From Alphaproteobacteria bacterium (GTDB taxonomy: Bacteria > Pseudomonadota > Alphaproteobacteria > Rs-D84): a stretch of 64,000 nt of DNA. Both the position numbers and the translations under genes were made by a program. This document shows, piece after piece, positions 1,018 to 41,107 of this stretch (the first letter of the stretch is position 1; every line of letters starts with the position of its first letter). The stretch lies in contig SUUO01000001.1 in the NCBI GenBank assembly GCA_015062485.1, forward strand, positions 82,101 through 146,100, given 5' to 3'. The notes under the pieces were generated by a model. It saw nothing but the letters and a program-made list of their open reading frames with translations. It did no database searches and had not been told where the DNA came from.

Positions 1018-1027
1018 GATGCCCACA

Positions 1028-1062
1028 ACATAAAAAATCCCGCATTTGCGGGATTTTTTATT
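1028..1062. terminator. bidirectional rho-independent terminator (cccgcaaatgcggg hairpin flanked by A/T runs)
   Basis: perfect stem-loop plus T-tract between convergent gap and the Cys-rich gene. Confidence 0.7.
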
Positions 1063-2014
1063 CACAACCCAAATCAGACCGCAAATCTGCATTCGTCGCG
1101 ACCGCATTTTTACATAATTTTGGGCAATTTAAACTACACAAACCAGCAATCGAAAAGTTTTGATAGAAAAAATTTTTATTTTCATCTACAACATTACACC
1201 AACATTTCGTGCCTTTTTCCTCTGTTTTGGTGCCGTTGATTATCTGATACTGTGTCCCAGATAAAGAATTACACACCCCAGTTACATTAGCGCACGTATC
1301 TGTATAATTACACGCTTCTTCATACGAATACATACCAGACTGGTCCATCATCCCATCAATCGGGCCAATACTGCAATCATATATTCCAACCACCGATGCC
1401 GGCGTGGTACCAGCAAGAACTACACTGGAATCAGCGGTCCTGGCCGACGGACACTGCGTGCACCCCGCGCTACAATTAAAACTAGCACTAAGCAAACCAC
1501 CGGTACCGCTTGATGTTGAGAATTCGCATTCTATATCAGATGAATGCCCGTAATATCCCGCAGCACAGCTAAAACTGTATTCGGTTGAACAGGTTGATGT
1601 TGTACTGTCTGGGTCGTTGCACACATCTAATCTTGTGTAATCATAGCCATCGGTTATAGGATACTGCATTATATAACCGGTCGGCTCGCAATCAGCATCA
1701 CTATCACATTCATCCTCGGTCTCTATTTCAACACACGTATCAACTGGCACAGATATTGGCGCGCCACACCCCGTAGCCATATAAACGGTAGATAATTCAT
1801 ATCCCGTCTTGCACGTTTGACACTCTGTCACTTGATATTGGGTAACATTATTAACTGTGGACGTACCAGAAACTTTGGTACATTTTGCAGCCTCATTCCG
1901 GATTGTTGTCAGGCAATTTTCCGCCAAAATCGATTGTATCAGCCCCCACGCATCACAAGACGCAAATATCCCCATCACCACCGCCGCAACCAAACCGACG
2001 TTTAGATTCGGCAC
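1058..2014 (-). CDS. secreted Cys/Ser/Thr/Gly-rich protein (family member A1)
   Basis: 318 aa with an N-terminal hydrophobic signal-like segment and ~30 Cys. N- and C-termini (MPNxxVGL... ...LGCE) are shared with 48624..49586. GTG start, no clear SD. Confidence 0.6.
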   Translation of the reverse strand: MPNLNVGLVAAVVMGIFASCDAWGLIQSILAENCLTTIRNEAAKCTKVSGTSTVNNVTQYQVTECQTCKTGYELSTVYMATGCGAPISVPVDTCVEIETEDECDSDADCEPTGYIMQYPITDGYDYTRLDVCNDPDSTTSTCSTEYSFSCAAGYYGHSSDIECEFSTSSGTGGLLSASFNCSAGCTQCPSARTADSSVVLAGTTPASVVGIYDCSIGPIDGMMDQSGMYSYEEACNYTDTCANVTGVCNSLSGTQYQIINGTKTEEKGTKCWCNVVDENKNFFYQNFSIAGLCSLNCPKLCKNAVATNADLRSDLGCE

Positions 2015-2020
2015 AAAAAA

Positions 2021-2150
2021 GAGGGATAAAATATGCAGAAATCAGGGATTTTTAATTATGAATTTATGCCGAGGAAAAACGTCCCATTGGATTCGGCATA
2101 TGTTTTTCGTCTCTATGCCGTGTATTATACCGTTTTGCGCGATTTTTATC
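2021..2150. promoter_or_regulatory. conserved ~130-nt 5' leader of the Cys-rich gene family (copy 1)
   Basis: near-identical to 49593..49722; core motif cgtcccattggattcggcat at 2080..2099. Confidence 0.6.
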
Positions 2151-2286
2151 AAGGCGTTTTTTGACATTTCAATGTTTTGATATCCGACCCCAGCAAATCT
2201 TGACAATTATCCTTTAAATTGCAACCGCCAAATTTAACAAACTGAACACGCATTTGATAAACAAGGTCAAATAATCAGAATAACAG

Positions 2287-2328
2287 AACGCCCACAATGG
2301 GGCGTTTGATTTTTGTGGCGGAGTATGA
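2287..2328. repeat. terminator-like repeat module aacgcccaNaNNgggcgtttgatttttgtggcggagta (copy 1)
   Basis: 25-nt exact identity (ggcgtttgatttttgtggcggagta) with 4165..4203; hairpin plus T-run. Confidence 0.5.
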
Positions 2329-2365
2329 TTTTATCACGACCAACCACATACAAATTCCAACCAAA

Positions 2366-3754
2366 CTATAAACAAACAATTCTGTCTATGTTGATATTTT
2401 TAGCAAATATCGTATCATGCGATACCAATAGAATCGCTCCGCGATATTGATTCAGCGCTTCTTCTAATATTGATATGCTTTTGATATCCAAATTGTTTGT
2501 TGGTTCATCCAGAATCAGTAAATCTGGTTGGTGGGGAGCACCTAATATCGTTGCCAATGTTGCCTTTAGTAATTCGCCACCTGATAATTGTCCCGCTTTC
2601 TTTTTGGATGCATCACCACGAAAACCAAAGTTTGCTGCGATTGCATGAGCATCATGTTTTAACACACCAGATATTGACATAATGTTTTCAACAACCGTCT
2701 TGTCGCAATCCAGCAGCGATAAATCCTGATCCAAATACACTATGCGACCAAAGGTTTTTATATCGCCCGACTGCGGATATAATTTGCCACAAATTATTTT
2801 TAAAAGGGTTGATTTTCCTGCTCCATTTTTTCCTGTCAGCCGAACACGTGTTGCACCATACATAGAAAAATCAAAATTGCTAAAAATTTGACTGTCTGCA
2901 TATGCGAAATACAACGAAGAAATTTTTATCAACTCTTTGCTGTAAAAGTCCTTGGACGGCAATGGAATCTTTATCATATCATCACGCATTTGACCAGATA
3001 ACATTTGCCGTTGCTGAATTTGGTCATTTAATTTTTTTTGAATTATTGCACGACGCTTTGATTCTGTTTCTTGACTTTTACCTTTTAGCGCATTTGCTTC
3101 AATTCTTGATCCTGATGCCTTATTCTTTTTGTCTTTAGCCTGTTTTGCAACATGGTGTTGGCGTGTATTTTGTGCAACCACCAACGTACCAGTTAAACGT
3201 GATATCTCTTTGGTACAGTCGATATATTTTGACTCTAGGTTGCGTTGTTCGGACTGTTTTTGCGCAACATAAAAATCATAATTACCACCATAGACACGAA
3301 TTTTACCGTTTGAAATTTCTGCTATCTTGTCCATATGCTGCAATAATTCACGGTCGTGCGACACAACCACAACACCAAACGGATATGTAATTAAAGCATC
3401 AAAAAAACGCGCCTTTGCATCTGCATCCAGATTGTTTGTTGGTTCATCCAACAGCAAAATTTCCGCATTACTATCAAACGCCCGCGCCAACAAATAACTT
3501 TGACGTTCGCCACCGCTTTTTTTATCAATCGAATTGAATTGATTTACCATATAGACATCTGCATTACGCGCAACCTGACCAGAATCTGGTGCAATGTCGC
3601 CATTTAGCAAACGCAACAATGTCGTCTTGCCCGAGCCATTGTCACCGACAATTGCGACTTTGTCTGTATTGTTAAAAACAATCGACGCACCGTCCAGCAA
3701 ATTGCTGTCCGTATCATAACTGAAAAACACATTAGAAAGTGATATAAATCCCAT
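2366..3754 (-). CDS. ABC-F family ATPase (two NBDs, no TMD)
   Basis: two Walker A motifs (GDNGSGKT, GKNGAGKS), two LSGGE signatures and a charged linker. Start taken at the internal Met (MGFISLSN). Confidence 0.85.
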   Translation of the reverse strand: MGFISLSNVFFSYDTDSNLLDGASIVFNNTDKVAIVGDNGSGKTTLLRLLNGDIAPDSGQVARNADVYMVNQFNSIDKKSGGERQSYLLARAFDSNAEILLLDEPTNNLDADAKARFFDALITYPFGVVVVSHDRELLQHMDKIAEISNGKIRVYGGNYDFYVAQKQSEQRNLESKYIDCTKEISRLTGTLVVAQNTRQHHVAKQAKDKKNKASGSRIEANALKGKSQETESKRRAIIQKKLNDQIQQRQMLSGQMRDDMIKIPLPSKDFYSKELIKISSLYFAYADSQIFSNFDFSMYGATRVRLTGKNGAGKSTLLKIICGKLYPQSGDIKTFGRIVYLDQDLSLLDCDKTVVENIMSISGVLKHDAHAIAANFGFRGDASKKKAGQLSGGELLKATLATILGAPHQPDLLILDEPTNNLDIKSISILEEALNQYRGAILLVSHDTIFAKNINIDRIVCL

Positions 3755-3997
3755 AACAAAAACCCTATAATATCGCAGTTGAACACCGTGCATTTTTACG
3801 CACTACATTTTGAAAAATACGATATTATCTACTCATTGGTTTTTGTCCTTATACTTGTTTGTATATACCTACTGTAGCATATCCATCATAAAAATCAACA
3901 AATTTACATCATTGCACATACTGGTAACCTTGTGGTGGGAAAGTGGCTGGAATCCGCCTAAAAACAAAGCCCCGACAGATTTTGTCGGGGCTTTGAT

Positions 3998-4017
3998 TAT
4001 TCCTGGCGGAGACGAAG
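3998..4017. repeat. attR-like direct repeat: 20-bp exact copy of the tRNA-Ser 3' end plus 6 nt
   Basis: tattcctggcggagacgaag is identical to 17871..17890, the last 14 nt of tRNA-Ser (minus strand) plus its flank. Confidence 0.8.
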
Positions 4018-4018
4018 T

Positions 4019-4160
4019 ATTCCCTCGCCCCGCGGGTGGCGGGGCTGTGGGGCATTCCTGACGGTTTTGCCGTACTATGTTTGCAAAACCTACTCATTGT
4101 CGAACCCACGCCACTATCGTGGCTTTACCGGGTTCGAACCCCGATTTCGGCACAAAAATA
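4019..4160. other. conserved island-end block (shared motifs with 29341..29458, 9470..9660 and 62800..63038)
   Basis: motifs gggttcgacaatgagta, gaatgcccc(a/g)cag and ggggcgaggg directly abutting the DR. Confidence 0.4.
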
Positions 4161-4164
4161 AAAC

Positions 4165-4203
4165 GCCCATATCGGGCGTTTGATTTTTGTGGCGGAGTAA
4201 GAC
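4165..4203. repeat. terminator-like repeat module (copy 2)
   Basis: see 2287..2328. Confidence 0.5.
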
Positions 4204-4491
4204 ATTTCTACGGTCATTTGCATACAACATCAGGGAATTTACAGGGAAATTTTGCCATTTTTGTCCCAAAAACCAATTTTGCACTGCGCCCGAGTCGCAT
4301 ATTATCCACTTCCCGTAAAAAATTCCCTAAATAAATAACAGGGAATTTATTTAAAAAGTGCTATAATTTTGTTGATTTTCTAACTAATTTTTGGTATAAT
4401 ACGACCCAAGTTAAGCAGGCGATTTTATCGCCTTTTTTATTTGCCCTGCCTGATATCGGTGGGGCTTTTTTATTACAAAAAAGGAATAATT

Positions 4492-5142
4492 ATGAAAAAG
4501 TCACACATCATCATTTCTGACATAACATGTATGAAAGAAAAATTCTGTATTGCAGGTTTTGATACATATGAAAAACGCATGAAACGTCTGATGATAGACG
4601 GCGGTTATTGGAACGCTAATCAGATTCCGACCAAATATTGTGAAATATTGGTCGACAATGAAGAATTTAAAGAACCACGAGATTACCCACACCGAACCGA
4701 AGATGTCAACATAGATATTAAATCTATAGAGATTTTGCAAGAATTTGAACCAGGAAAAGAGTTGGCAAACGCACTAAAAAGCAGCATATCAAAAGACATA
4801 CAAAGTATATTCCATCATCATGTCAAAGAAAATGCTTATGTGCCACAGAAAACCAAATGTCCTTCGTTGGGCGCCATATTGATTCCGGCACACAACATTG
4901 AATTCTTTACGGAAGATGGCAAGCTACGCGCCCGCATTACTGACTATTCTAAACAATTATATGAATTAAAGGTCAGTTGCAAATACCTGCGTGATATATT
5001 TGAAAAAGATAAAGATGTCAAAAATCTGAATAATGCCATTGCCGCTAGTCAGTATGCTCATTGTCGTATTGGATTGGCACGCAAGTTCCTGATGCAGGAA
5101 AATCATTGCTATTTAATGTTAAACGGGTTATTTTTATACTGA
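4492..5142 (+). CDS. hypothetical protein (island cargo)
   Basis: 216 aa (MKKSHIIISD...) with AAGGA RBS; no motif recognised; AT-rich. Confidence 0.5.
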   Translation: MKKSHIIISDITCMKEKFCIAGFDTYEKRMKRLMIDGGYWNANQIPTKYCEILVDNEEFKEPRDYPHRTEDVNIDIKSIEILQEFEPGKELANALKSSISKDIQSIFHHHVKENAYVPQKTKCPSLGAILIPAHNIEFFTEDGKLRARITDYSKQLYELKVSCKYLRDIFEKDKDVKNLNNAIAASQYAHCRIGLARKFLMQENHCYLMLNGLFLY

Positions 5143-5143
5143 T

Positions 5144-5569
5144 ATGACAAAGATTTTTACAATTGGTTTTAGTGGCAAAAAGCCCGATGATTTTTTGGAT
5201 ATCCTGAATGCAGCCAAGATAAACTGTGTTTGGGATATTCGGCTTTGGCGCACCAGCCGCTTTGTTCCGTTTTACAGTGGCACAAATTTGGCCGCAACAC
5301 TTGGTTCACGATACGAATATCATCCTGAATTTGCCCCAACGACAGATATCTTAGCGAGCTACAAAGATGGTTGCATCACCTGGCCTGATTATGAACGTAT
5401 GTATAGGGAATTATTGGCCACTCGCAACCCAACTGCGGGACTTGCCTTGAACTCTCTTGACCGCATATGCCTGCTTTGCACCGAAAAATCCGCAACACAA
5501 TGCCACCGCCGCCTAGCCGCAGAATATATCGCAGAACAATTTCCAGACATCGAAATTGTGCATTTATAA
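5144..5569 (+). CDS. DUF488-like protein
   Basis: 141 aa. N-terminus IFTIGFSGKKPDDFLDILNAAKINCVWDIRLWRTSR and ...YEYHPEFAP fit the DUF488 pattern (TIGxS..EeF...L..vDVR..P.S....LGG). Translationally coupled to the upstream ORF. Confidence 0.45.
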   Translation: MTKIFTIGFSGKKPDDFLDILNAAKINCVWDIRLWRTSRFVPFYSGTNLAATLGSRYEYHPEFAPTTDILASYKDGCITWPDYERMYRELLATRNPTAGLALNSLDRICLLCTEKSATQCHRRLAAEYIAEQFPDIEIVHL

Positions 5570-5586
5570 ATGAATAATTTTAGCAC

Positions 5587-8500
5587 TTAATAGCCCAACT
5601 CTTCTTCTTTTGCTACTTCTTGTTTGATGCATTCGTTCAGCCAGTCCAGCGAATCCTTTGCCCACATACGAACTAGTGGATTGGGATGCTCATGTAAATT
5701 CTGAAACAACGGAACATACTGTCTATAATAATCAGAAGTATTTCCCCACCAAGTATAATTATTTATACGGCTACTAATTATATTCAATTCATCCTTTGTT
5801 TCTGCTGTATCTATGAAATACTTTATTATTGGACTCCAATCTACTTGTTCGCATGAATTGTTTAATAGGCTCACTATTTCCATGATACAATTCCTGATAT
5901 TTTTTTGCATGTTTTTATCAACTGATTGTAAATATTCCGGAATCTGTTGATCTAAATGCATCGAAAACACATATGGCGACGCTCCATATTTACCATTAAA
6001 TCCATCCCCCAATAATCCCATCCATCCAGACAACCAAATACTATCTTCTTTAGCCATAGCGTTTAAAACATGCGGCAACATTACCGTAGGATGTTTTTTA
6101 ATTAAATTTTTTATTATTTTTGAAGCATCATTATTGTATTGCAATCCACGATAAGTGTCTGATGCGGCTGCCGTTTTAAACGCATCAAAAATAGTTAACG
6201 CCTCTTCTGGGTTCCAGTCTATTTTATGAATAATGTTACTTACATGATGCCCACTCATAGGATCTTTAAAAATAAATAGTATATTTTCTGTTTTTGCTAA
6301 GATATCAAATACCACTTTTTTACAATCTTCTGACAATACATTACCGCTATGCTGATAATAGTCCAGTGTTTCTACAATAAAACGACAAGAATCTGTTCCG
6401 AATGTATAGTATACCCCCCACAAGAAACTTATAACACGTTCTAAATCAACAGATTTTCTAAGATTGATACTAAGACCACCAATTTGTAATTGTAACAGTG
6501 AAATTTTTTTCTGTGCTATCAAGTCTAATATACTATCTACATCAGGATCCAAGAACCCACCATGAACGACCCAAATAAGCCTAATAATTCCATTTTTAGC
6601 TATCCATCTTTCATCTCCAAGAATCCTCGTTAGGATACCGTCTATATAAGAAGGATCTCGTTTCCATATTTCGTGCATAGCGACAGCGAGCAATGAATAA
6701 TTATCATTATCCATCGCCATATGTAACGCCATCAAACGATTTACAAACTCTTTATAATCCGTTATACAAGAGCCTATTCTGGATGCAAAATCATTAATAT
6801 TTCCAGCATTTTTACTTATGAAAAACGGCAATGAATCATATAAATGTTCTGGATTAGCCAAGTATGCGTCTGCAATTTCTTCCGATTTCTGCTTCATCAA
6901 AGAATGCGCATGTTTAAAATCTAGCTTGTCTTCTGTTTCCATAAAATACGCAACATCCCATTCTGATGGGACTATATAAAGCTCAAACAATGATTCTAGG
7001 TCTCTATCAGCTTTCGCCAGAAGCCTGTCTCTATACTCTATTAGTTTTTCAAAACCCTTGTCAGTGTTAAAACGTGAATTTGCTATAAAAGTTGGGATAT
7101 AATCCGGAAATTTTTCCAATAGAGATGAGACTAATGGTTCATATTTTTCAAATAATCCATTCATCAATAGAGGATTTGTTTTGTTACCTATGATCTTCAG
7201 CAAATCTTTTTTTAGCTCATCGTCGGCAGTATTGTTTATCTCTAGCAATATATTTCCCAAGGCGTCAAAATACGTTCCTACTTCAGACCATGTTTTTGGT
7301 TTATAATATGTTAGAGTTCGTGCCCCTTGAGATTCCGCTCCAGCCATACAGCTATAATGCCCACTGTTATCCAGACCTTTGTCTATCATTTTTAAGATTA
7401 TATTTTTTCCCTGCTTGAATTCTGGAATCAAAGATCGTAGCCAATTGATGCGTTGCTCCAAAGAGGCCTCTGTCGGGGCAAGAAAAACTTGCATTGTTTG
7501 AACCAACACACCTGTTGCATTATTTCCAATGCTCTCATTTTCTCCTTTTGCTAATCTGAACAAAAGTGCGGCTGCCCTTTCATACAAATCCCTATGAAAC
7601 ATTATTTTTTCTAATGTCCACACTATGCGTCTACGATGTTCAGAGATCTTATCCTTCATATCATCATCTGTCCACCCTTCAAAGGCATACTCTAATGAGT
7701 TCATTGCCAAGTCTGGTGCAATTTCAGCTAGTTGGCCGAATAACTCATTACTTGGCGAATTAAGCAATTCAGCATTAGAAAAAGGGGAAGTCTTGTCTCC
7801 GATGAAATATTTTACAAATTCTCTGACATTATCTAAAAATTTTATTTTTTTCATGAAACGCTCTTGCAAGGCAAAAGGCAACTCTTTGTAATATCTATTG
7901 ACCATATCTGGATGTGTTTTGTCATTCCACTCTCTTGCTAAATAAATAGCTAATGGAAACGGTTGCACAGAAATAGAAAATCCTTTTTGTTGTATTATTT
8001 TGCGTTCACTAAATTCGTTGTAAACTTCAAAAACTTTATTTTTATCAAGTTCGAATACCTCGATTATCTTGTCTATCTCATTTGGATCTGCCAACCCCAT
8101 ACCGCTATACCTACGTCCAGCAGACACCATTCCTGGCATACAGCCTATTTTAGTGAATAAAGACAAAACCCTAAGAATCTTTATTGTATCTGGTTCACAT
8201 TCACCCGTACGATCTCTCAAAAGCAATTTATATATGTCAGTATCCTTAAAACGCCCTAACTTTACAGTTTCGCCCCTTGACATAGCCTCTTTAATTTCTC
8301 GCGCAATATGTATCGCGAAGCGAGGAAAACCATCTGCGACCTTGACTACTGCCGCCCGCATATGCTCTTCAAGATCTGGAGCAATCTGCTTAACGATAGC
8401 AGCAACAACTTCATTAGATAACTTATTAAACTTTAGTTCTTCAGAATCATCATATGAATCATAATCTATTGTAACTAAAGTAATTTGGCCACCAGAAATA

Positions 8501-9369
8501 ATTCGTTTAATCGCTTGCAACTCATCTTTGTCACATTCATCAATAATTAATATAAACGGTTTATTTTGATCTAATGTTCTCAGAAACGGTATTAAAAAAA
8601 TTAGTTCGCATTTAGGCACATAAATTATTCTTCTCTTATCTTCTTTGGACATACGATTACACGCTTCCAAAACTGTGCGCGTTTTTCCTATTCCTGCCAA
8701 CCCACTAATATTAGATACTGGATTTTGTAATATACGAGCTTTTATCTCTTCAACAAAAGAATTTAGCCTATCATCTAATTGAAACTGATTTATGGCATCC
8801 CTAGCATTCCACTCATCAAGAGATTCGGCACCAACTTTAATCCACATCTCTCTCAAATCTGGCTTTAAATCGAAGATTATATCCTGATGCAAGTTAACCC
8901 AATTTTGCATATCTTCCGCATCTAGAAACACTGGGGTTGTGTTAGTAGCGCCAATATTATCTAGCTCATCTTGCATTGCTTTTATACGTGCTTCTTTAAG
9001 TTGTGATGGAATATGATCTTTTGTCGAAATAATAACAAAATCGTAGTCTGCTAACAATTTTTTGCACAATGCTGTATGGGCAGGACTAGCTATTTCCTCA
9101 GCACACTTGGCCGGCGACATACTCGTCGCCTTTAATTGAAAAATTGTTTGAGTTGACGGAATAAATTTATCTAGTACAGTTTTTATTTTACCATGTAAAA
9201 TGGCATCTATTCCCCCATCTCTAACGTTTTCGTTAGAACAGACCTCAAAATCCCAAGGCTTGAACCCCTCTGCAAACAACAGCTGTTTTGTGAGCCTAGT
9301 CAGTTCCACGTCATTTAAATTCTTAATAGTATCAATATCTATTTCATAGCAGCTCATATAATCTCCCAA
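5587..9369 (-). CDS. Mrr-like nuclease + P-loop (STAND-like) NTPase + long helical-repeat protein; Avs/antiviral-STAND-like defence candidate
   Basis: 1260 aa. aa51-55 DGGID and aa78-80 QLK match the Mrr_cat PD-(D/E)xK spacing. Walker A GLAGIGKT (aa223-230), Walker B ILIIDECD (aa273-280). About 950 aa of C-terminal repeats. ~35% GC. Confidence 0.6.
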   Translation of the reverse strand: MGDYMSCYEIDIDTIKNLNDVELTRLTKQLLFAEGFKPWDFEVCSNENVRDGGIDAILHGKIKTVLDKFIPSTQTIFQLKATSMSPAKCAEEIASPAHTALCKKLLADYDFVIISTKDHIPSQLKEARIKAMQDELDNIGATNTTPVFLDAEDMQNWVNLHQDIIFDLKPDLREMWIKVGAESLDEWNARDAINQFQLDDRLNSFVEEIKARILQNPVSNISGLAGIGKTRTVLEACNRMSKEDKRRIIYVPKCELIFLIPFLRTLDQNKPFILIIDECDKDELQAIKRIISGGQITLVTIDYDSYDDSEELKFNKLSNEVVAAIVKQIAPDLEEHMRAAVVKVADGFPRFAIHIAREIKEAMSRGETVKLGRFKDTDIYKLLLRDRTGECEPDTIKILRVLSLFTKIGCMPGMVSAGRRYSGMGLADPNEIDKIIEVFELDKNKVFEVYNEFSERKIIQQKGFSISVQPFPLAIYLAREWNDKTHPDMVNRYYKELPFALQERFMKKIKFLDNVREFVKYFIGDKTSPFSNAELLNSPSNELFGQLAEIAPDLAMNSLEYAFEGWTDDDMKDKISEHRRRIVWTLEKIMFHRDLYERAAALLFRLAKGENESIGNNATGVLVQTMQVFLAPTEASLEQRINWLRSLIPEFKQGKNIILKMIDKGLDNSGHYSCMAGAESQGARTLTYYKPKTWSEVGTYFDALGNILLEINNTADDELKKDLLKIIGNKTNPLLMNGLFEKYEPLVSSLLEKFPDYIPTFIANSRFNTDKGFEKLIEYRDRLLAKADRDLESLFELYIVPSEWDVAYFMETEDKLDFKHAHSLMKQKSEEIADAYLANPEHLYDSLPFFISKNAGNINDFASRIGSCITDYKEFVNRLMALHMAMDNDNYSLLAVAMHEIWKRDPSYIDGILTRILGDERWIAKNGIIRLIWVVHGGFLDPDVDSILDLIAQKKISLLQLQIGGLSINLRKSVDLERVISFLWGVYYTFGTDSCRFIVETLDYYQHSGNVLSEDCKKVVFDILAKTENILFIFKDPMSGHHVSNIIHKIDWNPEEALTIFDAFKTAAASDTYRGLQYNNDASKIIKNLIKKHPTVMLPHVLNAMAKEDSIWLSGWMGLLGDGFNGKYGASPYVFSMHLDQQIPEYLQSVDKNMQKNIRNCIMEIVSLLNNSCEQVDWSPIIKYFIDTAETKDELNIISSRINNYTWWGNTSDYYRQYVPLFQNLHEHPNPLVRMWAKDSLDWLNECIKQEVAKEEELGY

Positions 9370-9419
9370 AAAACGACTCTTATTGAGTAAGTATATATAA
9401 TATAATGTTCTAAAATCAA

Positions 9420-9660
9420 GCTATTAACATTCAACTTGATTTAATTTGTTTCTCGCGGTACACTTTCCTTGAATCCAATGGGAATTGGGTTCGGGGCTGT
9501 GGTGGCCCGCAGACGCGGCATTTGTCGTTAAAATCCCCCGACTTTGGTCGGGGAGCCGTTTGCTATAAAACAGGGCTTGCCCGAAGGCTGCGGAGCATTC
9601 GTTTGCTGACACCAACTCCCCGACCGTCAATTCCGTTGGCGGTCATTAATTTATAAAAAG
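9420..9660. other. structured non-coding leader upstream of the Avs-like gene
   Basis: hairpins ccccgactttggtcgggg and gggaattgggttc; motifs gaatgctccgcag and ccacagccccg shared with island-end blocks. Confidence 0.35.
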
Positions 9661-9670
9661 GGAGAAGCCA

Positions 9671-9919
9671 ATGGCAAAATCCGCAGGTGTATTACACTCT
9701 ACTATTGAGATTTCTGACAACATTCTGATTCAAGAAAGTACTTATTCATATATTGACGGTATAGACGCCAAAAGACCAAACGAAAAAACAGGCGTATCCA
9801 AACGCGGTTGGAGATGGCTTGGCTCCACAGAAGAAAGCAAAAAAGTCATTAATGGTGCTTTATGGATTGTGCGTGATATTTATATTAAGAACAGCAAAAA
9901 ATATAAGCTACCAAAATAA
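9671..9919 (+). CDS. hypothetical small protein
   Basis: 82-aa ORF with GGAG-like RBS. Confidence 0.35.
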   Translation: MAKSAGVLHSTIEISDNILIQESTYSYIDGIDAKRPNEKTGVSKRGWRWLGSTEESKKVINGALWIVRDIYIKNSKKYKLPK

Positions 9920-9930
9920 GGACGGATAAA

Positions 9931-10476
9931 ATGAAGAAGTTTAATCTATCTTTTTTAGCACTAGCTTTAACTGGGTGTATGGTACCAGATTACCCCGATG
10001 TCCCAAAATTGCAACCAGATTATACTGCCGACAATATAGAGGTATTGCAGGTTATTGATAACGATGAAATTCTTGCGTATTACAGGAATAACTTAGGGCA
10101 CTTTACAATAGACAACATGAAGTCAGATATTGTAGATGGTGGGGTGTATTCTGTAGACGGTGTAAAACAAGTTGGAGTATATCGCTATACGTCCGCATGG
10201 GGAACTGTAAAAACAGTTCCAGATTATACAATTCATAATGATATGGGACTAGAGGCAAAGTATAAGGAAGCGTTAGAAAAATACGACACAGACTTTCCAA
10301 AAGAAGAAAGAAAATATTACCAATCATTTTTTTGTGGCGGCGGTGCAACAATTGTTTATACACCACTTTCCGTATTATTTAGTCCAATATGTTTGTTAGA
10401 TAAAAATTGTTATTTTAAATTAAACTGTTTGTCTGATAGAGATAAGCGCGTTCCGTACAAAGACAGAAAAAGATAA
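9931..10476 (+). CDS. lipoprotein (hypothetical)
   Basis: signal peptide with lipobox LTGC. Confidence 0.55.
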   Translation: MKKFNLSFLALALTGCMVPDYPDVPKLQPDYTADNIEVLQVIDNDEILAYYRNNLGHFTIDNMKSDIVDGGVYSVDGVKQVGVYRYTSAWGTVKTVPDYTIHNDMGLEAKYKEALEKYDTDFPKEERKYYQSFFCGGGATIVYTPLSVLFSPICLLDKNCYFKLNCLSDRDKRVPYKDRKR

Positions 10477-10491
10477 AAAGTGGAAATAACA

Positions 10492-11058
10492 ATGAAAAAA
10501 TTATCGCCCGTTCTAACAATAATATTATTTGGTTGCGGATTGACTCAATCCCCTATATCCGACAATACAAAACCGAACATCCCCATAGAAAAACCATTGG
10601 CTAAATATCAAGAATGTATGGGATATTCTGATAAAACAATTATACACACAGAAGAAAGTCCAGGTAGATACATTGTCCTTGTTAGTGAAAAATCTGTTGA
10701 CCAACCCTGGACCAACAAGAAAGAGCAAGGACAAGTTTTCTATACCAGTTTGTTAGAATGTTCCGCAGGAAATTCTATAGATGAGTGCATGGACCAACAA
10801 CATCTTAGAGTTCGTAATATTGGCACAATGGATAAGTGGACGGTTGGGAGCATAAAACAGTTCAAAAATGCAGATTTTATGTTTGATAAAACCATACGCA
10901 CCGAAAGACTAAACGATGGCAGGTTTGTTGACATAACAAACTATTGTTATACAGATAGAAAAGATATAACCAAAAGTTATTGCGGTCACTTTGTTTATAC
11001 GGCCAACTGGCATTCTGAATGCAAGAACAAATTGATGGCGCCCGCCGACAACAAATAA
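10492..11058 (+). CDS. lipoprotein (hypothetical)
   Basis: MKKLSPVLTIILFGC lipobox; start at internal MKK. Confidence 0.55.
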   Translation: MKKLSPVLTIILFGCGLTQSPISDNTKPNIPIEKPLAKYQECMGYSDKTIIHTEESPGRYIVLVSEKSVDQPWTNKKEQGQVFYTSLLECSAGNSIDECMDQQHLRVRNIGTMDKWTVGSIKQFKNADFMFDKTIRTERLNDGRFVDITNYCYTDRKDITKSYCGHFVYTANWHSECKNKLMAPADNK

Positions 11059-11083
11059 TCAATGGGGCGAACACCCCATTGAT

Positions 11084-12535
11084 TCATGAATGTTGTACCA
11101 CATAATTTATACATTGTGTTAAGGCGTCAACTTGGTCTTTGTATTTACCATTAGGGAATCCTAATAGTTCTTTCTTGAAATCTGACAACCAAGGCGCCTC
11201 TTGTGGAAATCGTAATGTACCGTTTTCTATATAAGCACTAGCCCCCATTAATCTTGATGTTTTATCCGTATCAGGTTTTATTGGTTCAATTGCAAAATTG
11301 TATCCATGAGGGTCTCTTTGTGCCATTAGCATTTGTATCAATTGCGTTCCACTTGCCTTGTCTTCTATTAACAATCTTACCAAATGTCGTCCACCCATTT
11401 CATACTTCCAATAGCAATACACTTTTTCCACTTGTCTGATAAGGTCGGGCATTTCCCATTTGCCACGAACAACATCTAGCAGGTAGTATTTATACATATT
11501 GGATTCGCATGTCATCAATATAACACAGCAAGCGGAATATGCATTATTTGGCCCAGTTTTATTGGCGGTATCCCAGCTAAGGAAAATTCTGCGATACTTG
11601 ACAGGGTCTATGGATTCGCCCTGTGCCTTGGTATAGTAGTGCAGCCATGACTCTTTAATAATTCCGCCTTCTGGTGGACATGGATCTTGTTGATATTGAG
11701 CAACAAATGCATTTTCACCCATAGAGTTCTTTATGCTTGTTACAACATCCATATTTTCACGTTCTGCGTGCAGCAATTCGCCCTTGGCACGCGTAATTAC
11801 TCGCACTTTACCAGAAATGCGATTCTTGACCATCCAGTTTTCATCCTCGATTGCAATAATGGGCAGCTTAATGATATTGAACTGTTCACCCAACTCCAAC
11901 AAATGTCCAGTTAAATCATCCTGATGCAGACGTTGCATTACCAGTATAATTTTGCCATTTGCCTTGTCATTAAGACGCGAATACAACGTAGAGCCATACC
12001 ATTCATTCAATTTGGCACGCTGGGTTTCAGATGTTGCATCCACAGATTTCTGGGGATCGTCTATGATTATCCAATCTGCGCCACGACCGGTCAATGTTCC
12101 GCCAACAGATGTGGCTATGCGTCCGCCACCACGTGTGGTTGCAAAATCGTTTACAGCCTGCCTGGATTGATGCAGACGTGTCATTGGGAAAAGTTCACGA
12201 TACCAATCCGATTGCATAACGTCACGACAACTGATCGCGAATTTTTCTGCCAGTTCATCATTATAACTGACACAAAGGATTTGAGCCTTTGGGTTATGTC
12301 CCAGTATCCATGCCGGTAATGCGATTGAACATATCATACTTTTCATATACCGCGGTGGCATATTTATAATCTGGCGATTATGTCGCCCTTCGTACATATC
12401 CATAATTGCGTCACAAATGACATCAATATGCCAATTGTTCAGGTAATATGAACCAGGAGATACCTCGTTAAACACCTTTACCACAAAAGATTTAAAATCT
12501 GTGCGTAATATCGCATTCATAATTTCTTTATTCAT
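11084..12535 (-). CDS. phage terminase large subunit-like protein
   Basis: 483 aa; C-terminal RNaseH-like nuclease residues (KYKDQVDALTQ). Typical co-occurrence with upstream small protein and ParB-MTase in alphaproteobacterial phage elements. Confidence 0.6.
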   Translation of the reverse strand: MNKEIMNAILRTDFKSFVVKVFNEVSPGSYYLNNWHIDVICDAIMDMYEGRHNRQIINMPPRYMKSMICSIALPAWILGHNPKAQILCVSYNDELAEKFAISCRDVMQSDWYRELFPMTRLHQSRQAVNDFATTRGGGRIATSVGGTLTGRGADWIIIDDPQKSVDATSETQRAKLNEWYGSTLYSRLNDKANGKIILVMQRLHQDDLTGHLLELGEQFNIIKLPIIAIEDENWMVKNRISGKVRVITRAKGELLHAERENMDVVTSIKNSMGENAFVAQYQQDPCPPEGGIIKESWLHYYTKAQGESIDPVKYRRIFLSWDTANKTGPNNAYSACCVILMTCESNMYKYYLLDVVRGKWEMPDLIRQVEKVYCYWKYEMGGRHLVRLLIEDKASGTQLIQMLMAQRDPHGYNFAIEPIKPDTDKTSRLMGASAYIENGTLRFPQEAPWLSDFKKELLGFPNGKYKDQVDALTQCINYVVQHS

Positions 12536-12896
12536 TGTTGTTCTCCTTTAAATATTGTTTTAATATTTCTATGTCGTCCTGCCTAATAGCTGTGGCTGCT
12601 TTGGCAAGTTCTTCGTTTTTATTATCTGCTTCTGCCATCACAGGCAACAAAGTCTGCAACGCTTTTAAATCGCCTTGCACAGCCTTGTTTGTCGCCTGTA
12701 ATAGCATGGCTTGCTTTTTGCTTATTTTTACTGGCTTGCCATTTTTGGTCATTGGAATCTTTTCATTTACAATGTCATCCAGTAATTTATAAATATTTTT
12801 GCTGCCACTTGGTCGCCCCTTTGGGTTACCAGATTGGCCGGGTTTGAACTGTCCTGATTTAGGCGGTTTCATATAGCCCAATTCATAATCTGCCAT
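12528..12896 (-). CDS. small phage protein upstream of terminase (DUF5681/TerS-like)
   Basis: 122 aa, Lys/Gly-rich N-terminus; stop overlaps TerL start. Confidence 0.4.
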   Translation of the reverse strand: MADYELGYMKPPKSGQFKPGQSGNPKGRPSGSKNIYKLLDDIVNEKIPMTKNGKPVKISKKQAMLLQATNKAVQGDLKALQTLLPVMAEADNKNEELAKAATAIRQDDIEILKQYLKENNNE

Positions 12897-14200
12897 TACG
12901 ATACCTCTCGCTTTGCGGTTAATAATTCCGAATACGTTTTGCCAGACACTTGATGTACGGCATCGATATGAAACATTTCTAAAAACCTGCGGATAGCAGT
13001 ATCCACGTACAGTGGTTCCAGTTCAATGCCATAACAAATGCGTTTGGATTGGTGGGCGGCAATCAATGTACTGCCCGATCCAAGAAACGTATCCAACACA
13101 ACATCGCCACGCCGTGTGACGTCGAGCATCGCATCTTTCAGCATTTCAACCGGCTTTACAGTCGGATGCATTTGAATGTCTGACCTGTGCCTGCCGAACG
13201 CATTTACGCCCGCATACTGCCAAACATTTGTGCGATAACGCCCATTTTTACCAAGCTGAACATTATTGGTGTGTGATTCCTTGCCGTTTTTGAAAATAAA
13301 GCAGAGTTCGTGTTGACTACGATACAGACTGCCCATACCGCCCGAAGTCTTGCACCAAACACACATGTTTATCAGGCCTGAAAACGCGTCGGTTCCTGCG
13401 GACAATATTTCGCCCATGTGGCGCCAATCCATGAAATTGTACTGTAATGCCCCAGGGCGAGAATATTTCGCACACAATTCAAAGTTCTTGTGCAAAAACT
13501 GCGCGAACTCATCTGTACTCATCTCGCCAGATGCCATTTTAAACTCTTTATGCCGGATATTGCCCGAACTGCATACATGCCCTGATATTTTTACATTGTA
13601 TGGCGGATCTTGCAGAACCATATCTGCCTGACGCGTGCCAAGCAGCGTTTCAAAGGTCACAGCATCCAGACTGTTCCCGCAAATAATTCTATGGTCGCCA
13701 ATACACCACACATCACCGGGGCGTGTTACAATTTCGTTTTCTGGGATGTACGGCACATTATTTGCCTTGGAGTCCGCTGTCGTCCTATTATCCATAGTCA
13801 ATATATCCAGTTCAACATCTGAAAATCCCGTAATAGATACGTCCATATCGCCACAGATTTGTTCCAGTTCGGATATTTCTAACCGCAACAAATCCGCATT
13901 CCAACCACCGTTTTCGGCGATTTTGTTATCAGCCAGGCGATAGGCACGCTTTTGTGCATCTGATAAATGTGCCAGACGGATAACTGGCACGGTATCCAGC
14001 CCCAAAACTTGGGCGGCAGCCATACGACCGTGCCCGGCAATGATTTCCAGATTTTCGTCCACTAGTATCGGATTATTGAACCCAAACTGCTGAATAGATG
14101 CTGCTATCTGCTGGATTTGGCTTTCTGGATGATTTTTTGCGTTTTTCGCATAGGCGCGTATTTGATTTAGCGCCACGTTTTCTATTGTTAAAGTTTTCAT
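12896..14200 (-). CDS. ParB-like nuclease domain fused to DNA N6/N4 methyltransferase
   Basis: N-terminal ParB motif (GHGRMAAA). DPPY motif IV and FLGSGST motif I. Start taken at MKTLT with GGAG RBS. Confidence 0.75.
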   Translation of the reverse strand: MKTLTIENVALNQIRAYAKNAKNHPESQIQQIAASIQQFGFNNPILVDENLEIIAGHGRMAAAQVLGLDTVPVIRLAHLSDAQKRAYRLADNKIAENGGWNADLLRLEISELEQICGDMDVSITGFSDVELDILTMDNRTTADSKANNVPYIPENEIVTRPGDVWCIGDHRIICGNSLDAVTFETLLGTRQADMVLQDPPYNVKISGHVCSSGNIRHKEFKMASGEMSTDEFAQFLHKNFELCAKYSRPGALQYNFMDWRHMGEILSAGTDAFSGLINMCVWCKTSGGMGSLYRSQHELCFIFKNGKESHTNNVQLGKNGRYRTNVWQYAGVNAFGRHRSDIQMHPTVKPVEMLKDAMLDVTRRGDVVLDTFLGSGSTLIAAHQSKRICYGIELEPLYVDTAIRRFLEMFHIDAVHQVSGKTYSELLTAKREVS

Positions 14201-14386
14201 AAAAAAACTCCTTGGTTGTTGTTTAGATTGCAATACGGAGATTTTTTACTCGAATTGCTATATAATATACAGTGATTGCCAACTAGATTTTTTACAAACA
14301 CACAATATTTTTATAAAAACTTGATTTTCTGCTTGATTTAAGAAGCTTTGTAAGCAGTAATTGCACAACCCTAGAAGGAGGCATTT

Positions 14387-14887
14387 ATGGCAAAAATAGA
14401 ACTTCCAACTACACTGGATGCTCTGCGAGCAATGCCGTTTGCAGATCGGGCGACTCTTTGGGCTAAATACAGCCCACACCCATTCAAACGACAAATGCGG
14501 GCATTGTGGTACTATATTCAATGCGACCGCTTCAAACTGCGGATTGAACCAAAGTTCCTGACCAAGATAAAGAAATACAAAGACAATCCCACAGAATGTG
14601 TCACCCATGCGTATCATAATCGGTACTATATCCGTCCCGGCACGGTTATAACACGAACATTCCGCAGAATCATGCATGAAGTCATCGTCAATGACGACAA
14701 TACGTTCACGTATAATGGCGAAAAATATCGCACTTTATCCGCAATAGCCAAAGATATATCAGGCATCAAGATTTCGGGACCGGATTTCTTTGGCTTGTCA
14801 AAAAATTACAAACCAATCTTAATCAATAAAAACAATATGCATAGTAGAGCTGAAAAAAAATATACTTCTGCCCAATTTGCAAAATGA
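14387..14887 (+). CDS. DUF2924-like protein (recombinase-associated)
   Basis: 166 aa, AGGAGG RBS, directly upstream of the serine recombinase as is typical for DUF2924. Confidence 0.45.
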   Translation: MAKIELPTTLDALRAMPFADRATLWAKYSPHPFKRQMRALWYYIQCDRFKLRIEPKFLTKIKKYKDNPTECVTHAYHNRYYIRPGTVITRTFRRIMHEVIVNDDNTFTYNGEKYRTLSAIAKDISGIKISGPDFFGLSKNYKPILINKNNMHSRAEKKYTSAQFAK

Positions 14888-15078
14888 TCCGCTTTTCTAT
14901 CTGCCATGGCTATAGCAATACTCATTTCAATCCTATCTTGGACATCGGAAGACTTTTCATTATAGGTTGCAACGATATCTGCAATATTATTGTCCTGCTG
15001 TCTTGCCAACTTATTATTTTTGGCAGCAAACATAAAACCAGCAATAATACCTACAACCAAGAACAAATTAGAAATCAT
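14806..15078 (-). CDS. small membrane protein (hypothetical)
   Basis: 90 aa with two hydrophobic helices; overlaps the end of 14387..14887, so uncertain. Confidence 0.25.
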   Translation of the reverse strand: MISNLFLVVGIIAGFMFAAKNNKLARQQDNNIADIVATYNEKSSDVQDRIEMSIAIAMADRKADHFANWAEVYFFSALLCILFLLIKIGL

Positions 15079-15155
15079 GTATATCTCCTTTATTTATATA
15101 ACCTATTCTATAAGAACACAAAACTAGTATCAATTATAAAACCATAGGACTTAAA

Positions 15156-16745
15156 ATGACAATTAAATGTGCGATTTACACACGAAAGTCAACCGAGCAT
15201 GGACTTGATATGGAGTTCAATTCCCTGCAGAACCAAGAAGAGGCATGCAAGGCATATATTGCATCCCAATCATTCAATGGATGGCAATATTGTAAAACAT
15301 ACAGCGATGCGGCGATTTCAGGCGGAACTATGGAACGACCGGCATTAAAGCGAATGCTGGATGATATGGCACATGGGTTAGTAAATACTGTGGTAGTGTA
15401 TAAGGTTGACCGATTATCGCGTTCCATATTGGATTTTCATAAGATGATGCAGTATTTCAACAAGTATAATGCGAACTTTGTATCTATAACACAATCTTTT
15501 GATACCAGTACATCTATGGGTAAATTGACGCTGAATATGCTGTTATCATTTGCCCAGTTTGAACGCGAAGTTTCCAGCGAACGAGTACGAGATAAAATAC
15601 GTGCCAGTAAAGCCAAAGGCATATGGATGGGCGGCAATCCGCCGTTGGGTTATGATGTGATAAATAAAAAATTGATTCCGAATGAGGCTGAGGCCATGAC
15701 TGTTCGGACACTATTTGAAAAGTATCTAGAACTGCAATCTGTAAATGCACTGACCGAATATGCCGTGATGCATAATATATTCGCAAAACAATGGACGACA
15801 GCCAAAGGCATCACAAAGGGAGGCCGACCCATTGCCAAAATGAGTATGCATCGATTATTGCGTGACAGGATTTATATCGGCCAAATTGTAAACAAGACGA
15901 ATAATACTACTGCCCCGGGCGAGCATCAGGCGATATTACCCACAGAACTGTTTAATCGTGTACAAGCGGCCTTGCAAAACAACGCGAATAACAAGTCTGA
16001 AACACACGGTTCACCCAATTTGTTGACCGGCAAACTGTTTAATCACAACGGCGTACGCTTTACCAATCAACGAACATGTGGCAAAGGCAAAACCAACACC
16101 CATTATTATGCAACCCGTGGCTTTTATCTGCCAGCACCCCAGGTGGACGAAATCGCAATAAAAACCATAACGCGGTTCTCAGATGCAGATTTATCAGCGC
16201 TACCGTCCGCGACCGCAGATGCACTAAAATGCATTAACATCCAAAACGCGCCATACGCAGAAAAGAAAGCCTTTATTCAATCACTGATTGATAAGGTTAT
16301 ATACTCGCAGGATAAACTGATATTTTATCTGATACTAGACGTGGCAAAATTACAGTTGTTCGCGAAGGCCAACTTCATCAACCAGAAATCCGACCCGATG
16401 GAGTTCACGATCAGCGATAGACACATTGTAATAACCGTCCCAATCATCCTGCGTAAATACGTAAACACAGTGTTTGATAAAACCAAGAACGGTGTCCTGA
16501 CCATCACTGATAACAACCATCTAATCCTGAAAGCCTTCGCCACCGCTTGGCGATATCGTGAGATATACGAAGAATGCAGCGATGCAGACAAAATCATCGC
16601 ATCCGAACACACATCACCACGTCAGTTTTATAGATACCTTGACCTTGCATACATGAATCCAGAAACCGTCAACCGCATCCTATCCGGCGAACATAAAGTT
16701 AATGTTAAAGAATTGTTCCTGATTGCTAAAACTTCCAAAATGTAG
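15156..16745 (+). CDS. large serine recombinase (integrase)
   Basis: N-terminal resolvase domain AIYTRKST with catalytic Ser and VYKVDRLSRS; 529 aa with recombinase/zinc-ribbon extension. Confidence 0.9.
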   Translation: MTIKCAIYTRKSTEHGLDMEFNSLQNQEEACKAYIASQSFNGWQYCKTYSDAAISGGTMERPALKRMLDDMAHGLVNTVVVYKVDRLSRSILDFHKMMQYFNKYNANFVSITQSFDTSTSMGKLTLNMLLSFAQFEREVSSERVRDKIRASKAKGIWMGGNPPLGYDVINKKLIPNEAEAMTVRTLFEKYLELQSVNALTEYAVMHNIFAKQWTTAKGITKGGRPIAKMSMHRLLRDRIYIGQIVNKTNNTTAPGEHQAILPTELFNRVQAALQNNANNKSETHGSPNLLTGKLFNHNGVRFTNQRTCGKGKTNTHYYATRGFYLPAPQVDEIAIKTITRFSDADLSALPSATADALKCINIQNAPYAEKKAFIQSLIDKVIYSQDKLIFYLILDVAKLQLFAKANFINQKSDPMEFTISDRHIVITVPIILRKYVNTVFDKTKNGVLTITDNNHLILKAFATAWRYREIYEECSDADKIIASEHTSPRQFYRYLDLAYMNPETVNRILSGEHKVNVKELFLIAKTSKM

Positions 16746-17648
16746 CTATTGAGCGTTTTCGATAACCGATAACATAAACTCAGAAAACACCGCTGATGCA
16801 CCTACAGCTAACCGCGCATGCCTATCCAACATTGGCACACGCCTAGTTCCAAGTCCATGAGAGTCGCTAGCAATATTCCGTATATTAGAAATCGCATCAA
16901 CAATTTTGTTTAATCCAGATATCAGATTATTAATTTGCCTGTCGACATCTCCATCCTGATGCATATTGTAAAGATCTTTAACTTGCCTGTATAATCTCGT
17001 AATATCCCCTCTATCAGAAGGCGTTTCCCCTTTCTGCTCTATCGCGTAACAAAAAATTTCTTCTGTAACCGTTCTGGCCTTTGTTATGGCACTATCGTTA
17101 TTACCATTTGATATATCTTCAAACGCTCTATCAATTAATTGCCGTACATATTCTCTATCTATTCTATCCAAAGAAGGGGTTTCAACTGGAATTTCAACAT
17201 GTTGTGATTTTACATGATAGACACTACCTATTAATACCATTTCATTACCACTACACGATAAATACCCATTAATCTTTGATATAATGGTTGAAATTATTTG
17301 ATTGTATATGAAATCTATTTCATCAGGAGAATACCCACTAAATACATCCGTAAATCTTTCTTTTGAAAACATATATGTCAACAAATCTGAAATACGGTTA
17401 TTTTCGATACACCAATCTACTATCTTTTCCATATAAGCCCATCGACTTAAAGCCCCGCCGTAGGTATACGATAAAGCATACCCAAATCGACTGGCAATGT
17501 TACATATTGCAGAGCCCGTTAAATACGGCAATGCACACCTTACAGACCTACAATCGCTTTCTGATAATTTTATGTTATCAAAGTATGTATCCCCAATAAA
17601 AATATCCAGAATAAACCTGGCTTTTAATAAATCATACCGTTCATCCAT
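16746..17648 (-). CDS. Abi_C/HEPN-like abortive-infection candidate
   Basis: 300 aa; C-terminal R-x6-H motif (ISNIRNIASDSHGLG) typical of HEPN/Abi_C; AT-rich; att-proximal. Confidence 0.45.
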   Translation of the reverse strand: MDERYDLLKARFILDIFIGDTYFDNIKLSESDCRSVRCALPYLTGSAICNIASRFGYALSYTYGGALSRWAYMEKIVDWCIENNRISDLLTYMFSKERFTDVFSGYSPDEIDFIYNQIISTIISKINGYLSCSGNEMVLIGSVYHVKSQHVEIPVETPSLDRIDREYVRQLIDRAFEDISNGNNDSAITKARTVTEEIFCYAIEQKGETPSDRGDITRLYRQVKDLYNMHQDGDVDRQINNLISGLNKIVDAISNIRNIASDSHGLGTRRVPMLDRHARLAVGASAVFSEFMLSVIENAQ

Positions 17649-17876
17649 CTTACTTCACACCTATGTTTATTATTCTGTTGGTTATATAATGTCAACCTGA
17701 TGTTAATTCAATCCCCGAAGTGGCATCCATGTTTTGGGCAAGGTATGCAATGCGGGTGATTTTGGTAGGATTGTGCGCGATGCCGAGCATACACCAGTAC
17801 CATCGCGCAGAAAAACCCCCGGATTCTGGGGAAAAAGAAACATCCCGTGGGATTACCACGGGATGTTCAATATTCC

Positions 17877-17967
17877 TGGCGGAGACGAAGGGATTCGAAC
17901 CCTTGATACCCTTGCGAGTATACTACATTTCCAATGTAGCGCACTAGACCAACTATGCGACGTCTCC
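17877..17967 (-). tRNA. tRNA-Ser (anticodon GGA)
   Basis: 91 nt; 7-bp acceptor, anticodon loop TTGGAAA, long variable arm, T-loop GGTTCGAAT, encoded CCA. Confidence 0.9.
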
Positions 17968-33938: not shown

Positions 33939-33940
33939 TT

Positions 33941-34135
33941 TTATTTCCCCCGTTCTATCATATTTTCAATTTGGTGAACAAGGGCACGTTGGGCCTCAAC
34001 CCCGCGCAATTCTGCGTCCGTCGCGTTCGCCCCCAGTACCCGTTCAATAGTTATTTTGCGTAAATGCGCAATCACACGCGCACCCGATGGGGTGCAAAAT
34101 GTGCGCGCAAAATCTTGTGCGATATTTTCTGACAT
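33941..34135 (-). CDS. small phage-associated protein
   Basis: 64 aa, co-oriented in the phage block. Confidence 0.3.
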   Translation of the reverse strand: MSENIAQDFARTFCTPSGARVIAHLRKITIERVLGANATDAELRGVEAQRALVHQIENMIERGK

Positions 34136-34138
34136 TTA

Positions 34139-35368: not shown

Positions 35369-35394
35369 ATTTTATCCTTTTTGTTTGTGTTGTT

Positions 35395-37816: not shown

Positions 37817-37891
37817 GTGATTATTTACTTGCGCAAGTCTTAAAAATTGACTATTATTTTGTCAAGATTATAGTTTTTAAGGAGTTGCACA

Positions 37892-38899: not shown

Positions 38900-38933
38900 T
38901 TCATCAACATAATACCGGAGAGAGAGGCACATT

Positions 38934-40718: not shown

Positions 40719-40735
40719 AATTATCCCCCCTATTC

Positions 40736-41083: not shown

Positions 41084-41107
41084 AGTAAATTCCTTTTGTT
41101 GTATTGA

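Follow-up and report, generated by a model that had tools for sequence, protein, structure and literature searches.

A deeply divergent Avs8-like gene, probably encoding an antiviral STAND receptor, on a low-GC island of an uncultured gut alphaproteobacterium

We report the computational analysis of a single large gene, referred to here as the Avs8-like gene, which lies in a 64,000-nucleotide (nt) stretch of DNA from an Alphaproteobacteria bacterium (assembly GCA_015062485.1, contig SUUO01000001.1, positions 82,101 to 146,100; this whole stretch is called the window, and its coordinates are used below). An earlier annotation made from the letters of the DNA (the sequence-only reading) had described a large open reading frame (ORF) here, and the minus-strand frame running from 9369 to 5587 is indeed uninterrupted; an ORF finder lists it as 1260 amino acids (aa) beginning at a TTG codon. 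The ATG at 9357 is the likelier start, because a GGGAG lies 5 nt upstream of it and all public gene calls of the protein give 1256 aa, while the TTG at 9369, which adds four codons, is probably not the start. Gene calls on 23 public contigs give an identical product of 1256 aa, whose residue numbering is used throughout. At 35.7% GC, the gene agrees with the approximate 35% given previously; the surrounding island has 39.3% and the remainder of the window 44.5%. The features of the gene, all on the minus strand, are as follows.

5587..9357, minus: complete coding sequence of the Avs8-like STAND protein (1256 aa and a stop codon)
9363..9367, minus: Shine-Dalgarno-like GGGAG, 5 nt before the ATG, read directly from the sequence
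9390..9419, minus: best sigma-70-like promoter candidate, TTGATT-18-TATACT, inferred from a consensus match only
8833..9357, minus: N-terminal effector domain, aa 1-175, with a PD-(D/E)xK Mrr-like nuclease fold (αβββαβ core)
9205..9219, minus: first part of the catalytic motif, D47-G-G-I-D51
9130..9138, minus: second part of the catalytic motif, Q74-L-K76, the (E/Q)xK of the PD-(D/E)xK signature, on strand β3
8368..8745, minus: STAND NTPase nucleotide-binding domain, aa ~205-330, a five-stranded P-loop domain in the model
8680..8703, minus: Walker A, GLAGIGKT, aa 219-226
8530..8553, minus: Walker B, ILIIDECD, aa 269-276
7912..8367, minus: helical domain with a GxP-type motif and winged-helix-like module, aa 331-482, secondary structure taken from the model
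5590..7911, minus: C-terminal sensor, aa 483-1256, an all-α HEAT/ARM-like solenoid from the model and Foldseek

This AT-rich promoter-proximal sequence can also be made out ahead of the homolog that is 73% identical to the window protein (locus L001).

The structure was modelled in two overlapping pieces, aa 1-560 and aa 520-1256. The first piece, with a mean predicted local distance difference test score (pLDDT) of 86.6, places a nuclease unit ahead of a P-loop, NB-ARC-like core, a helical domain and a winged-helix-like module. The nuclease unit is an αβββαβ element at aa 16-111 (helices at 16-29 and 82-90; strands at 37-39, 52-54, 71-76 and 106-111), in which D51 begins the second strand and Q74 and K76 lie on the third, the arrangement expected of the PD-(D/E)xK enzymes. 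The signature that the sequence-only reading had picked out, DGGID followed by QLK, is thus located at residues 47-51 and 74-76, and its key residues are intact: L26, D47, G48, G49, D51, Q74 and K76 do not vary across 22 homologous N-terminal domains, a diverse set with 17-28% identity to that of the window protein. The domain is homologous to the nuclease of Avs8A, the nearest characterised relative discussed below, and the catalytic D…D…QxK residues of the two proteins are identical, as are those of their Walker A and B motifs.

The N-terminal, putatively cell-killing effector is also exchangeable, since relatives that share the NTPase and the sensor bear a metallophosphatase or other unrelated N-termini in its place. 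Seven distant relatives (P0015, P0016, P0020, P0025, P0027, P0028 and P0029) have replaced the Mrr-like domain; some of the replacements are metallophosphatases (PF00149, as in the N-terminus of PADLOC PDC-S60) and others are different, one of them with a helix-turn-helix (HTH). Effector shuffling therefore occurs within the Avs8-like superfamily, in the modular pattern that is typical of Avs families.

The central part of the protein is a STAND P-loop NTPase with its Walker motifs, helical domain and winged helix, and both Walker motifs lie where they had been claimed. In an alignment of 18 sequences spanning the clade of close relatives, intermediate proteins and canonical Avs8A, residues G219, G222, G224, K225, T226 and R227 around the Walker A motif are invariant, as is D273 of the Walker B motif, with C275 nearly so. 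The GxP-type motif of the helical domain, D342-G-F-P-R-F-A348, is invariant in the clade, and its G343 is nearly invariant in the superfamily. When the model of aa 1-560 was compared to the PDB using Foldseek, the top match was Avs3 bound to terminase (1.1e-8), followed by Apaf-1, a STAND-TPR protein, SAMD9, NLR resistosomes and Avs5; further fold matches were to CED-4, plant NLRs and Avs4. The likeness to the eukaryotic NB-ARC proteins (CED-4, Apaf-1 and the plant NLR resistosomes) is at the level of the fold only, at 10-14% identity, and those proteins carry other effectors and sensors.

The remainder of the protein, some 770 aa (483-1256), is a helical sensor whose model (aa 520-1256, pLDDT 86.3) is entirely helical and resembles, in Foldseek, the HEAT/ARM solenoids that wrap around a cargo, such as the importins, CAND1 and SF3B1; the full-length Pfam search returns a sub-threshold HEAT_2 match at the C-terminus. 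The sequence-only reading had assigned about 950 aa to helical repeats, and a large helical sensor is present, but residues 277-482 still belong to the NTPase, helical and winged-helix modules and the sensor is correspondingly shorter. The proximal sensor (483-727) is conserved, with N612, N613, T629 and R636 invariant or nearly so, and the distal sensor (728-1256) diverges fast and carries a conserved W-x-G…W motif (G1205, W1232) at its end. Of these residues, N612, T629, R636, G1205 and W1232 are invariants of the whole superfamily. Taken with the PADLOC match described below, the fold matches, the effector swapping and a defence-rich neighbourhood, this bears out the proposed order of effector nuclease, STAND NTPase and C-terminal repeat sensor.

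PADLOC, which had been suggested as a check, gave the sole significant profile match of the protein, to PD-Lambda-4_A (E-value 4.8e-47, 158 bits; aa 1-727 against positions 1-745 of the 1283 in the model, or 58% of it). PD-λ-4 was found in a functional screen in E. coli (Vassallo et al. 2022) and has since been renamed Avs8 (bioRxiv 10.1101/2025.07.02.662641; 10.64898/2026.01.04.697583). Avs8A unites an Mrr-nuclease with a STAND NTPase and is sufficient for defence without Avs8B; it binds λ gpE and other HK97-fold capsid proteins, at ~127 nM, and when bound to capsid protein it degrades double-stranded DNA in a reaction that needs Mg²⁺ and ATP, and mutants of the nuclease active site lose defence (bioRxiv 10.1101/2025.07.02.662641). 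An independent screen confirmed the capsid trigger and modelled the Avs8 sensor around the A-domain of the capsid protein (bioRxiv 10.64898/2026.01.04.697583).

The window protein resembles Avs8A of E. coli ECOR07 (WP_000963924.1) in length (1256 aa compared to 1283 aa), in the order of its Mrr-like PD-(D/E)xK nuclease, STAND NTPase and long helical sensor, and in a colinear profile-profile alignment over the full length: hhalign of the clade against the canonical Avs8A profile pairs 1-1251 with 1-1271 at a probability of 99.8% and an E-value of 4.6e-30. The two also share a single-gene mode of function, Avs8B being dispensable in E. coli and absent at the window locus. No neighbouring ORF in the window matches PD-Lambda-4_B, and the genes on either side are oriented convergently or divergently, such that a two-gene operon is not present; Avs8B went equally undetected beside the canonical avs8A genes that were inspected, and its absence is not disqualifying because it is dispensable in E. 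coli. In other respects the proteins differ. PD-Lambda-4_A scores 158 bits with the window protein, as compared to 1777 bits and 2107 bits for canonical members from an Enterobacter plasmid and an E. coli chromosome, respectively; the window clade has the classical GxP motif DGFPRFA where canonical proteins have DGNARVS; the canonical hosts are Gammaproteobacteria whereas the host here is an uncultured gut alphaproteobacterium; and the canonical family comprises at least 3355 clusters at 90% identity whereas the window clade is one cluster at 50% identity.

The gap between the two groups is bridged by intermediates. One such protein, from a Pseudanabaena plasmid, can be aligned along its entire length with the window protein (23% identity, E-value 1e-61) and likewise with the PD-Lambda-4_A model. 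By BLASTP, the proximal sensor (483-730) can be aligned with canonical Avs8A, and a search with a profile of the clade's distal sensor (728-1256) by hmmsearch finds no canonical Avs8A but does reach intermediate proteins, colinearly. The sensor-half profile search yields 330 representatives among 1.84 billion proteins, all colinear at the C-terminal end of proteins of 1240-1350 aa; 85 of the 149 sensor-profile relatives that were retrieved also match canonical Avs8A by BLASTP, and for one relative (P0311) the full-length identity to it is 33%. A repeat of the homolog search with a 28-sequence alignment returned a near-identical set, with two new and distant proteins. These alignments indicate that the window clade and Avs8A form one superfamily with a continuum of divergence, in which the clade is a deep branch and not a separate invention, so that the earlier suggestion of an undescribed clade was overstated. 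The architecture, the likely mechanism and the family are already described; what is new is a rare and deeply divergent lineage, whose distal sensor has diverged strongly and whose carrier element is unusual.

It is very probable that the protein is an Avs-type nuclease receptor, and it is probable that, more specifically, its product is an antiviral STAND (Avs) immune receptor that works as a single protein and belongs to a branch of the PD-λ-4A/Avs8 superfamily that is both deep and rare. Several observations weigh against this assignment. BLASTP of the window protein against canonical Avs8A gives an identity of 21-23% and ends at residue ~700-730, and when the distal sensor halves alone are compared, hhalign returns a colinear alignment of 14% identity with P 8.6e-4 and a probability of 24%. 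The full-length Pfam search yields nothing above threshold, with the STAND-type families AAA_16 (0.016) and nSTAND_NTPase5 (0.029) falling short, and Mrr_cat (PF04471) reaches 12.7 bits (E-value 0.14) against a gathering threshold of 21 bits. Sequence searches of the PDB with the clade profile, canonical Avs8A and the nuclease-domain profile returned nothing relevant, and no solved structure was detectable by them. Finally, a T7-type capsid gene is resident on the same chromosome, which a broadly capsid-reactive sensor must tolerate. The Mrr_cat and NACHT profiles that the sequence-only reading put forward as checks are neither of them significant alone. Similarly weak Mrr_cat matches occur in 3 of the 22 homologs, and the other weak Pfam matches of the nuclease domain are also to PD-(D/E)xK families (Cap4_nuclease, 0.077; DUF4365, 0.0039); the label 'Mrr-like' is owed to the motif, to the topology and to what has been published on the annotation of Avs8A, and not to membership of a Pfam family. 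NCBIfam gives nothing meaningful, and standard annotation in general fails on this lineage, with nothing significant from Pfam or NCBIfam and a partial PADLOC match that lacks a B partner.

The analysis itself shows the arrangement of the domains, the conserved state of catalytic and nucleotide-binding residues, the homology to Avs8A, the STAND fold, the solenoid form of the sensor, purifying selection and a setting in a mobile defence island. For the ligand, oligomerisation, DNase activity and anti-phage phenotype, we infer a mechanism by homology to Avs8A and to Avs3/Avs4. In the uninfected cell the protein would be an auto-inhibited monomer. On infection, its HEAT-like solenoid would wrap a newly made, unassembled and conserved phage protein; going by the binding partner of Avs8A, the leading candidate is an HK97-fold major capsid protein. 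Binding would free the NB-ARC-type NTPase (219-226, 269-276) to form an ATP-dependent oligomer, probably a tetramer, bringing together the N-terminal Mrr-like PD-(D/E)xK domains (D47, D51, Q74, K76), and the assembled nuclease domains would then degrade double-stranded DNA indiscriminately, thereby aborting the infection. EcAvs4 and SeAvs3 (PDB 8DGF, 8DGC) share the combination of nuclease effector, STAND NTPase and helical sensor, and their logic of a DNase activated by tetramerisation may be expected to hold for the window protein. They differ from it in that there is no sequence match (neither the PADLOC Avs1-5 models nor the PDB sequence search gives one), in that their TPR sensors are not matched by the window sensor in Foldseek, and in that those families sense terminase or portal.

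As to what is sensed, the major capsid protein is our leading guess, offered tentatively and by homology; the terminase or portal trigger proposed at the outset, which is what Avs1-4 respond to, is not the best guess, the nearest characterised relative being a sensor of the major capsid protein. It is a substantial possibility, though short of an even chance, that the same scaffold and nuclease output have been retained while the diverged distal sensor reads another conserved phage protein, for example a portal, a terminase or a tail component, which would amount to a novel specificity in the superfamily. Residues 728-1256, the distal sensor, can hardly be aligned with that of canonical Avs8A and are the fastest-evolving part of the protein; the Avs families with similar helical sensors recognise 13 or more different phage proteins; and the genome bears a T7-type capsid gene of its own, for which self-recognition is a possible issue beside a gene of this kind. 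Against a change of ligand, the sensor is colinear with the Avs8A sensor and is linked to it by intermediates. Given the weakness of the distal match, ligand specificity is not confidently transferable from Avs8A.

The close relatives of the protein fall into 11 clusters with identities of 49-100%, all of about 1256-1260 aa, and collapse to a single representative at 50% identity among the 1.84 billion proteins. The species-level carriers are metagenome-assembled genomes, either of "Candidatus Enterousia" from the gut or of unnamed Alphaproteobacteria. The capsid-sensing Avs8/PD-λ-4 superfamily is in this way extended into uncultured gut Alphaproteobacteria, and the outlier is useful for mapping how a pattern-recognition scaffold drifts while its target is kept or changed. 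Among 50,697 phage records searched by tblastn, none contained a homolog.

The gene is under purifying selection, with a ratio of non-synonymous to synonymous substitution (dN/dS) of 0.16 relative to the 86%-identical homolog and 0.18 relative to the 73%-identical homolog; by segment, constraint is strongest in residues 483-727 (0.08-0.11) and weakest in residues 728-1256 (0.21-0.22). These values bear on the suggestion, which we consider very improbable, that the gene encodes a non-immune STAND NTPase with a signalling or regulatory role or is a decaying, non-functional gene. The protein has no significant Pfam domain, and STAND clades do switch between defence and non-defence roles. The dN/dS values speak against decay, however, as does an intact full-length ORF on 23 contigs; there is no DNA-binding regulator domain, the catalytic residues of the nuclease are invariant, a role in defence is proven for the nearest homolog that has been characterised, and the neighbourhood is rich in defence genes (AbiJ and the PDC-M45-like pair here; AIPR, Fic and NERD in homolog loci).

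The Avs8-like gene lies within a low-GC element of ~17 kb at ~1018-17876. On the contigs that carry the identical protein, the gene order runs rpoZ, tRNA-Ser, AbiJ, a large serine recombinase, DUF2924, a ParB-methyltransferase, DUF5681, a full-length large terminase, three small ORFs, the Avs8-like gene, DUF488 with DuOB, an ABC-F-type ATPase, an unknown protein of 305 aa and gapA. The gene is thus associated both with defence genes (AbiJ, DUF488/DuOB and the mad3-like ATPase) and with genes of mobile elements (the serine recombinase and TerL). The principal neighbours are listed here.

16746-17648, minus: AbiJ, 300 aa (PADLOC AbiJ, E-value 2e-71; Pfam Abi_C), at the island edge beside the recombinase and tRNA-Ser
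17877-17967: tRNA-Ser
11084-12535: large terminase (TerL), phage-type and complete
4441-5569, plus: DuOB and DUF488 pair (PADLOC candidate system PDC-M45, B/C, E-value 3e-32), convergent with the Avs8-like gene
2366-3793, minus: two-cassette ABC-F-type ATPase, 475 aa (PADLOC mad3 of the MADS system, E-value 2e-46)

The serine recombinase, the phage genes and the low GC make the integrative island of the sequence-only reading a reasonable description, but no empty site was found that would prove integration: in a search through identical gapA contexts, every contig that reaches the downstream flank of gapA carries the island. No capsid, portal or tail gene is present in the ~17-kb island, and we take the element to be the remnant of a prophage or else something satellite-like. 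The 73%-identical homolog lies in a rearranged version of the same element (L001), beside Fic, AIPR, a methylase and NERD, and the core proteins of that island are 48-67% identical to those of the window island. The locus provides an example of defence cargo travelling on small phage-derived islands and introduces no new principle.

Such a setting raises the question of whom the gene serves, and it may be that it acts for its carrier island, which bears a terminase, lacks a capsid and is possibly a phage satellite, as an inter-element weapon or addiction module directed, for example, at competing or helper phages, and not for strict host immunity. The gene is always within ~2 kb of the module of ParB-methylase, DUF5681 and large terminase, which is accompanied by a serine recombinase, in two mutually rearranged versions of the island, and the GC of the island is below that of the chromosome. 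We regard this as improbable: the gene would still be an Avs-type defence in mechanistic terms, defence genes that satellites and prophages carry as cargo also protect the host, the island may be a decayed prophage and the gapA-context search found no empty site. The combined proposition that the distal sensor reads a different phage component and that the gene is cargo of an undescribed, satellite-like integrative element bearing a terminase and lacking a capsid is less remote, though still rather unlikely. An Avs-type immune receptor remains our preferred interpretation of the gene.

Some further observations concern the genes around it. In the loci of the 73%-identical homolog (L001-L005) there are only broken DUF488 fragments directly after the stop codon of the homolog, and the junction is therefore ancestral, the partner having decayed in those loci. 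The ABC-F-type ATPase may belong to the cargo of the island, or it may serve the host as a translation factor. At 9931-11058 on the plus strand, two small proteins of 181 and ~188 aa are encoded side by side, with lipoprotein-like N-termini (…LTGC and …LFGC); they belong to no database family and are not conserved in the homologous island, and they are possibly surface or exclusion factors.

The window holds a second phage-like region, at ~33940-46000, which has the appearance of a compact, podovirus-like resident element and includes the capsid gene considered above.

34139-35368: T7-type portal
35395-36234: gene of 279 aa with the T7 terminase nuclease domain only
43699-44526: Phage_capsid_2 major capsid protein (T7-type), 275 aa
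45328-45984: T7-type scaffold
within ~33940-46000: a Bbp19-like gene, DnaB, an HTH regulator, a tail-fibre-like gene and a tube gene

This podovirus-like element appears to be without a complete terminase, and the island has a complete terminase of a different type.

Lastly, the 313-nt region upstream of the Avs8-like gene, an AT-rich stretch between divergent genes, holds a GC-rich (52-60%), single-copy block of ~200 nt at ~9440-9650, which the sequence-only reading took for a long structured leader. The block is indeed structured, folding better than its shuffles with z-scores of -3.2 on the strand of the gene and -5.6 on the plus strand, and it ends in a hairpin directly before the Shine-Dalgarno sequence and ATG of a divergent small ORF (9671-9919, plus strand). 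We considered it as the leader of the Avs8-like gene and rejected this assignment, as the best promoter-like site (9419-9390) is downstream of the block and L001 has no such block; it is probably not the leader of this gene. Rfam has no family for the block at the gathering or E<=1 thresholds; the block may represent a cis-regulatory RNA of no classified type, or else a small RNA of the plus-strand operon.

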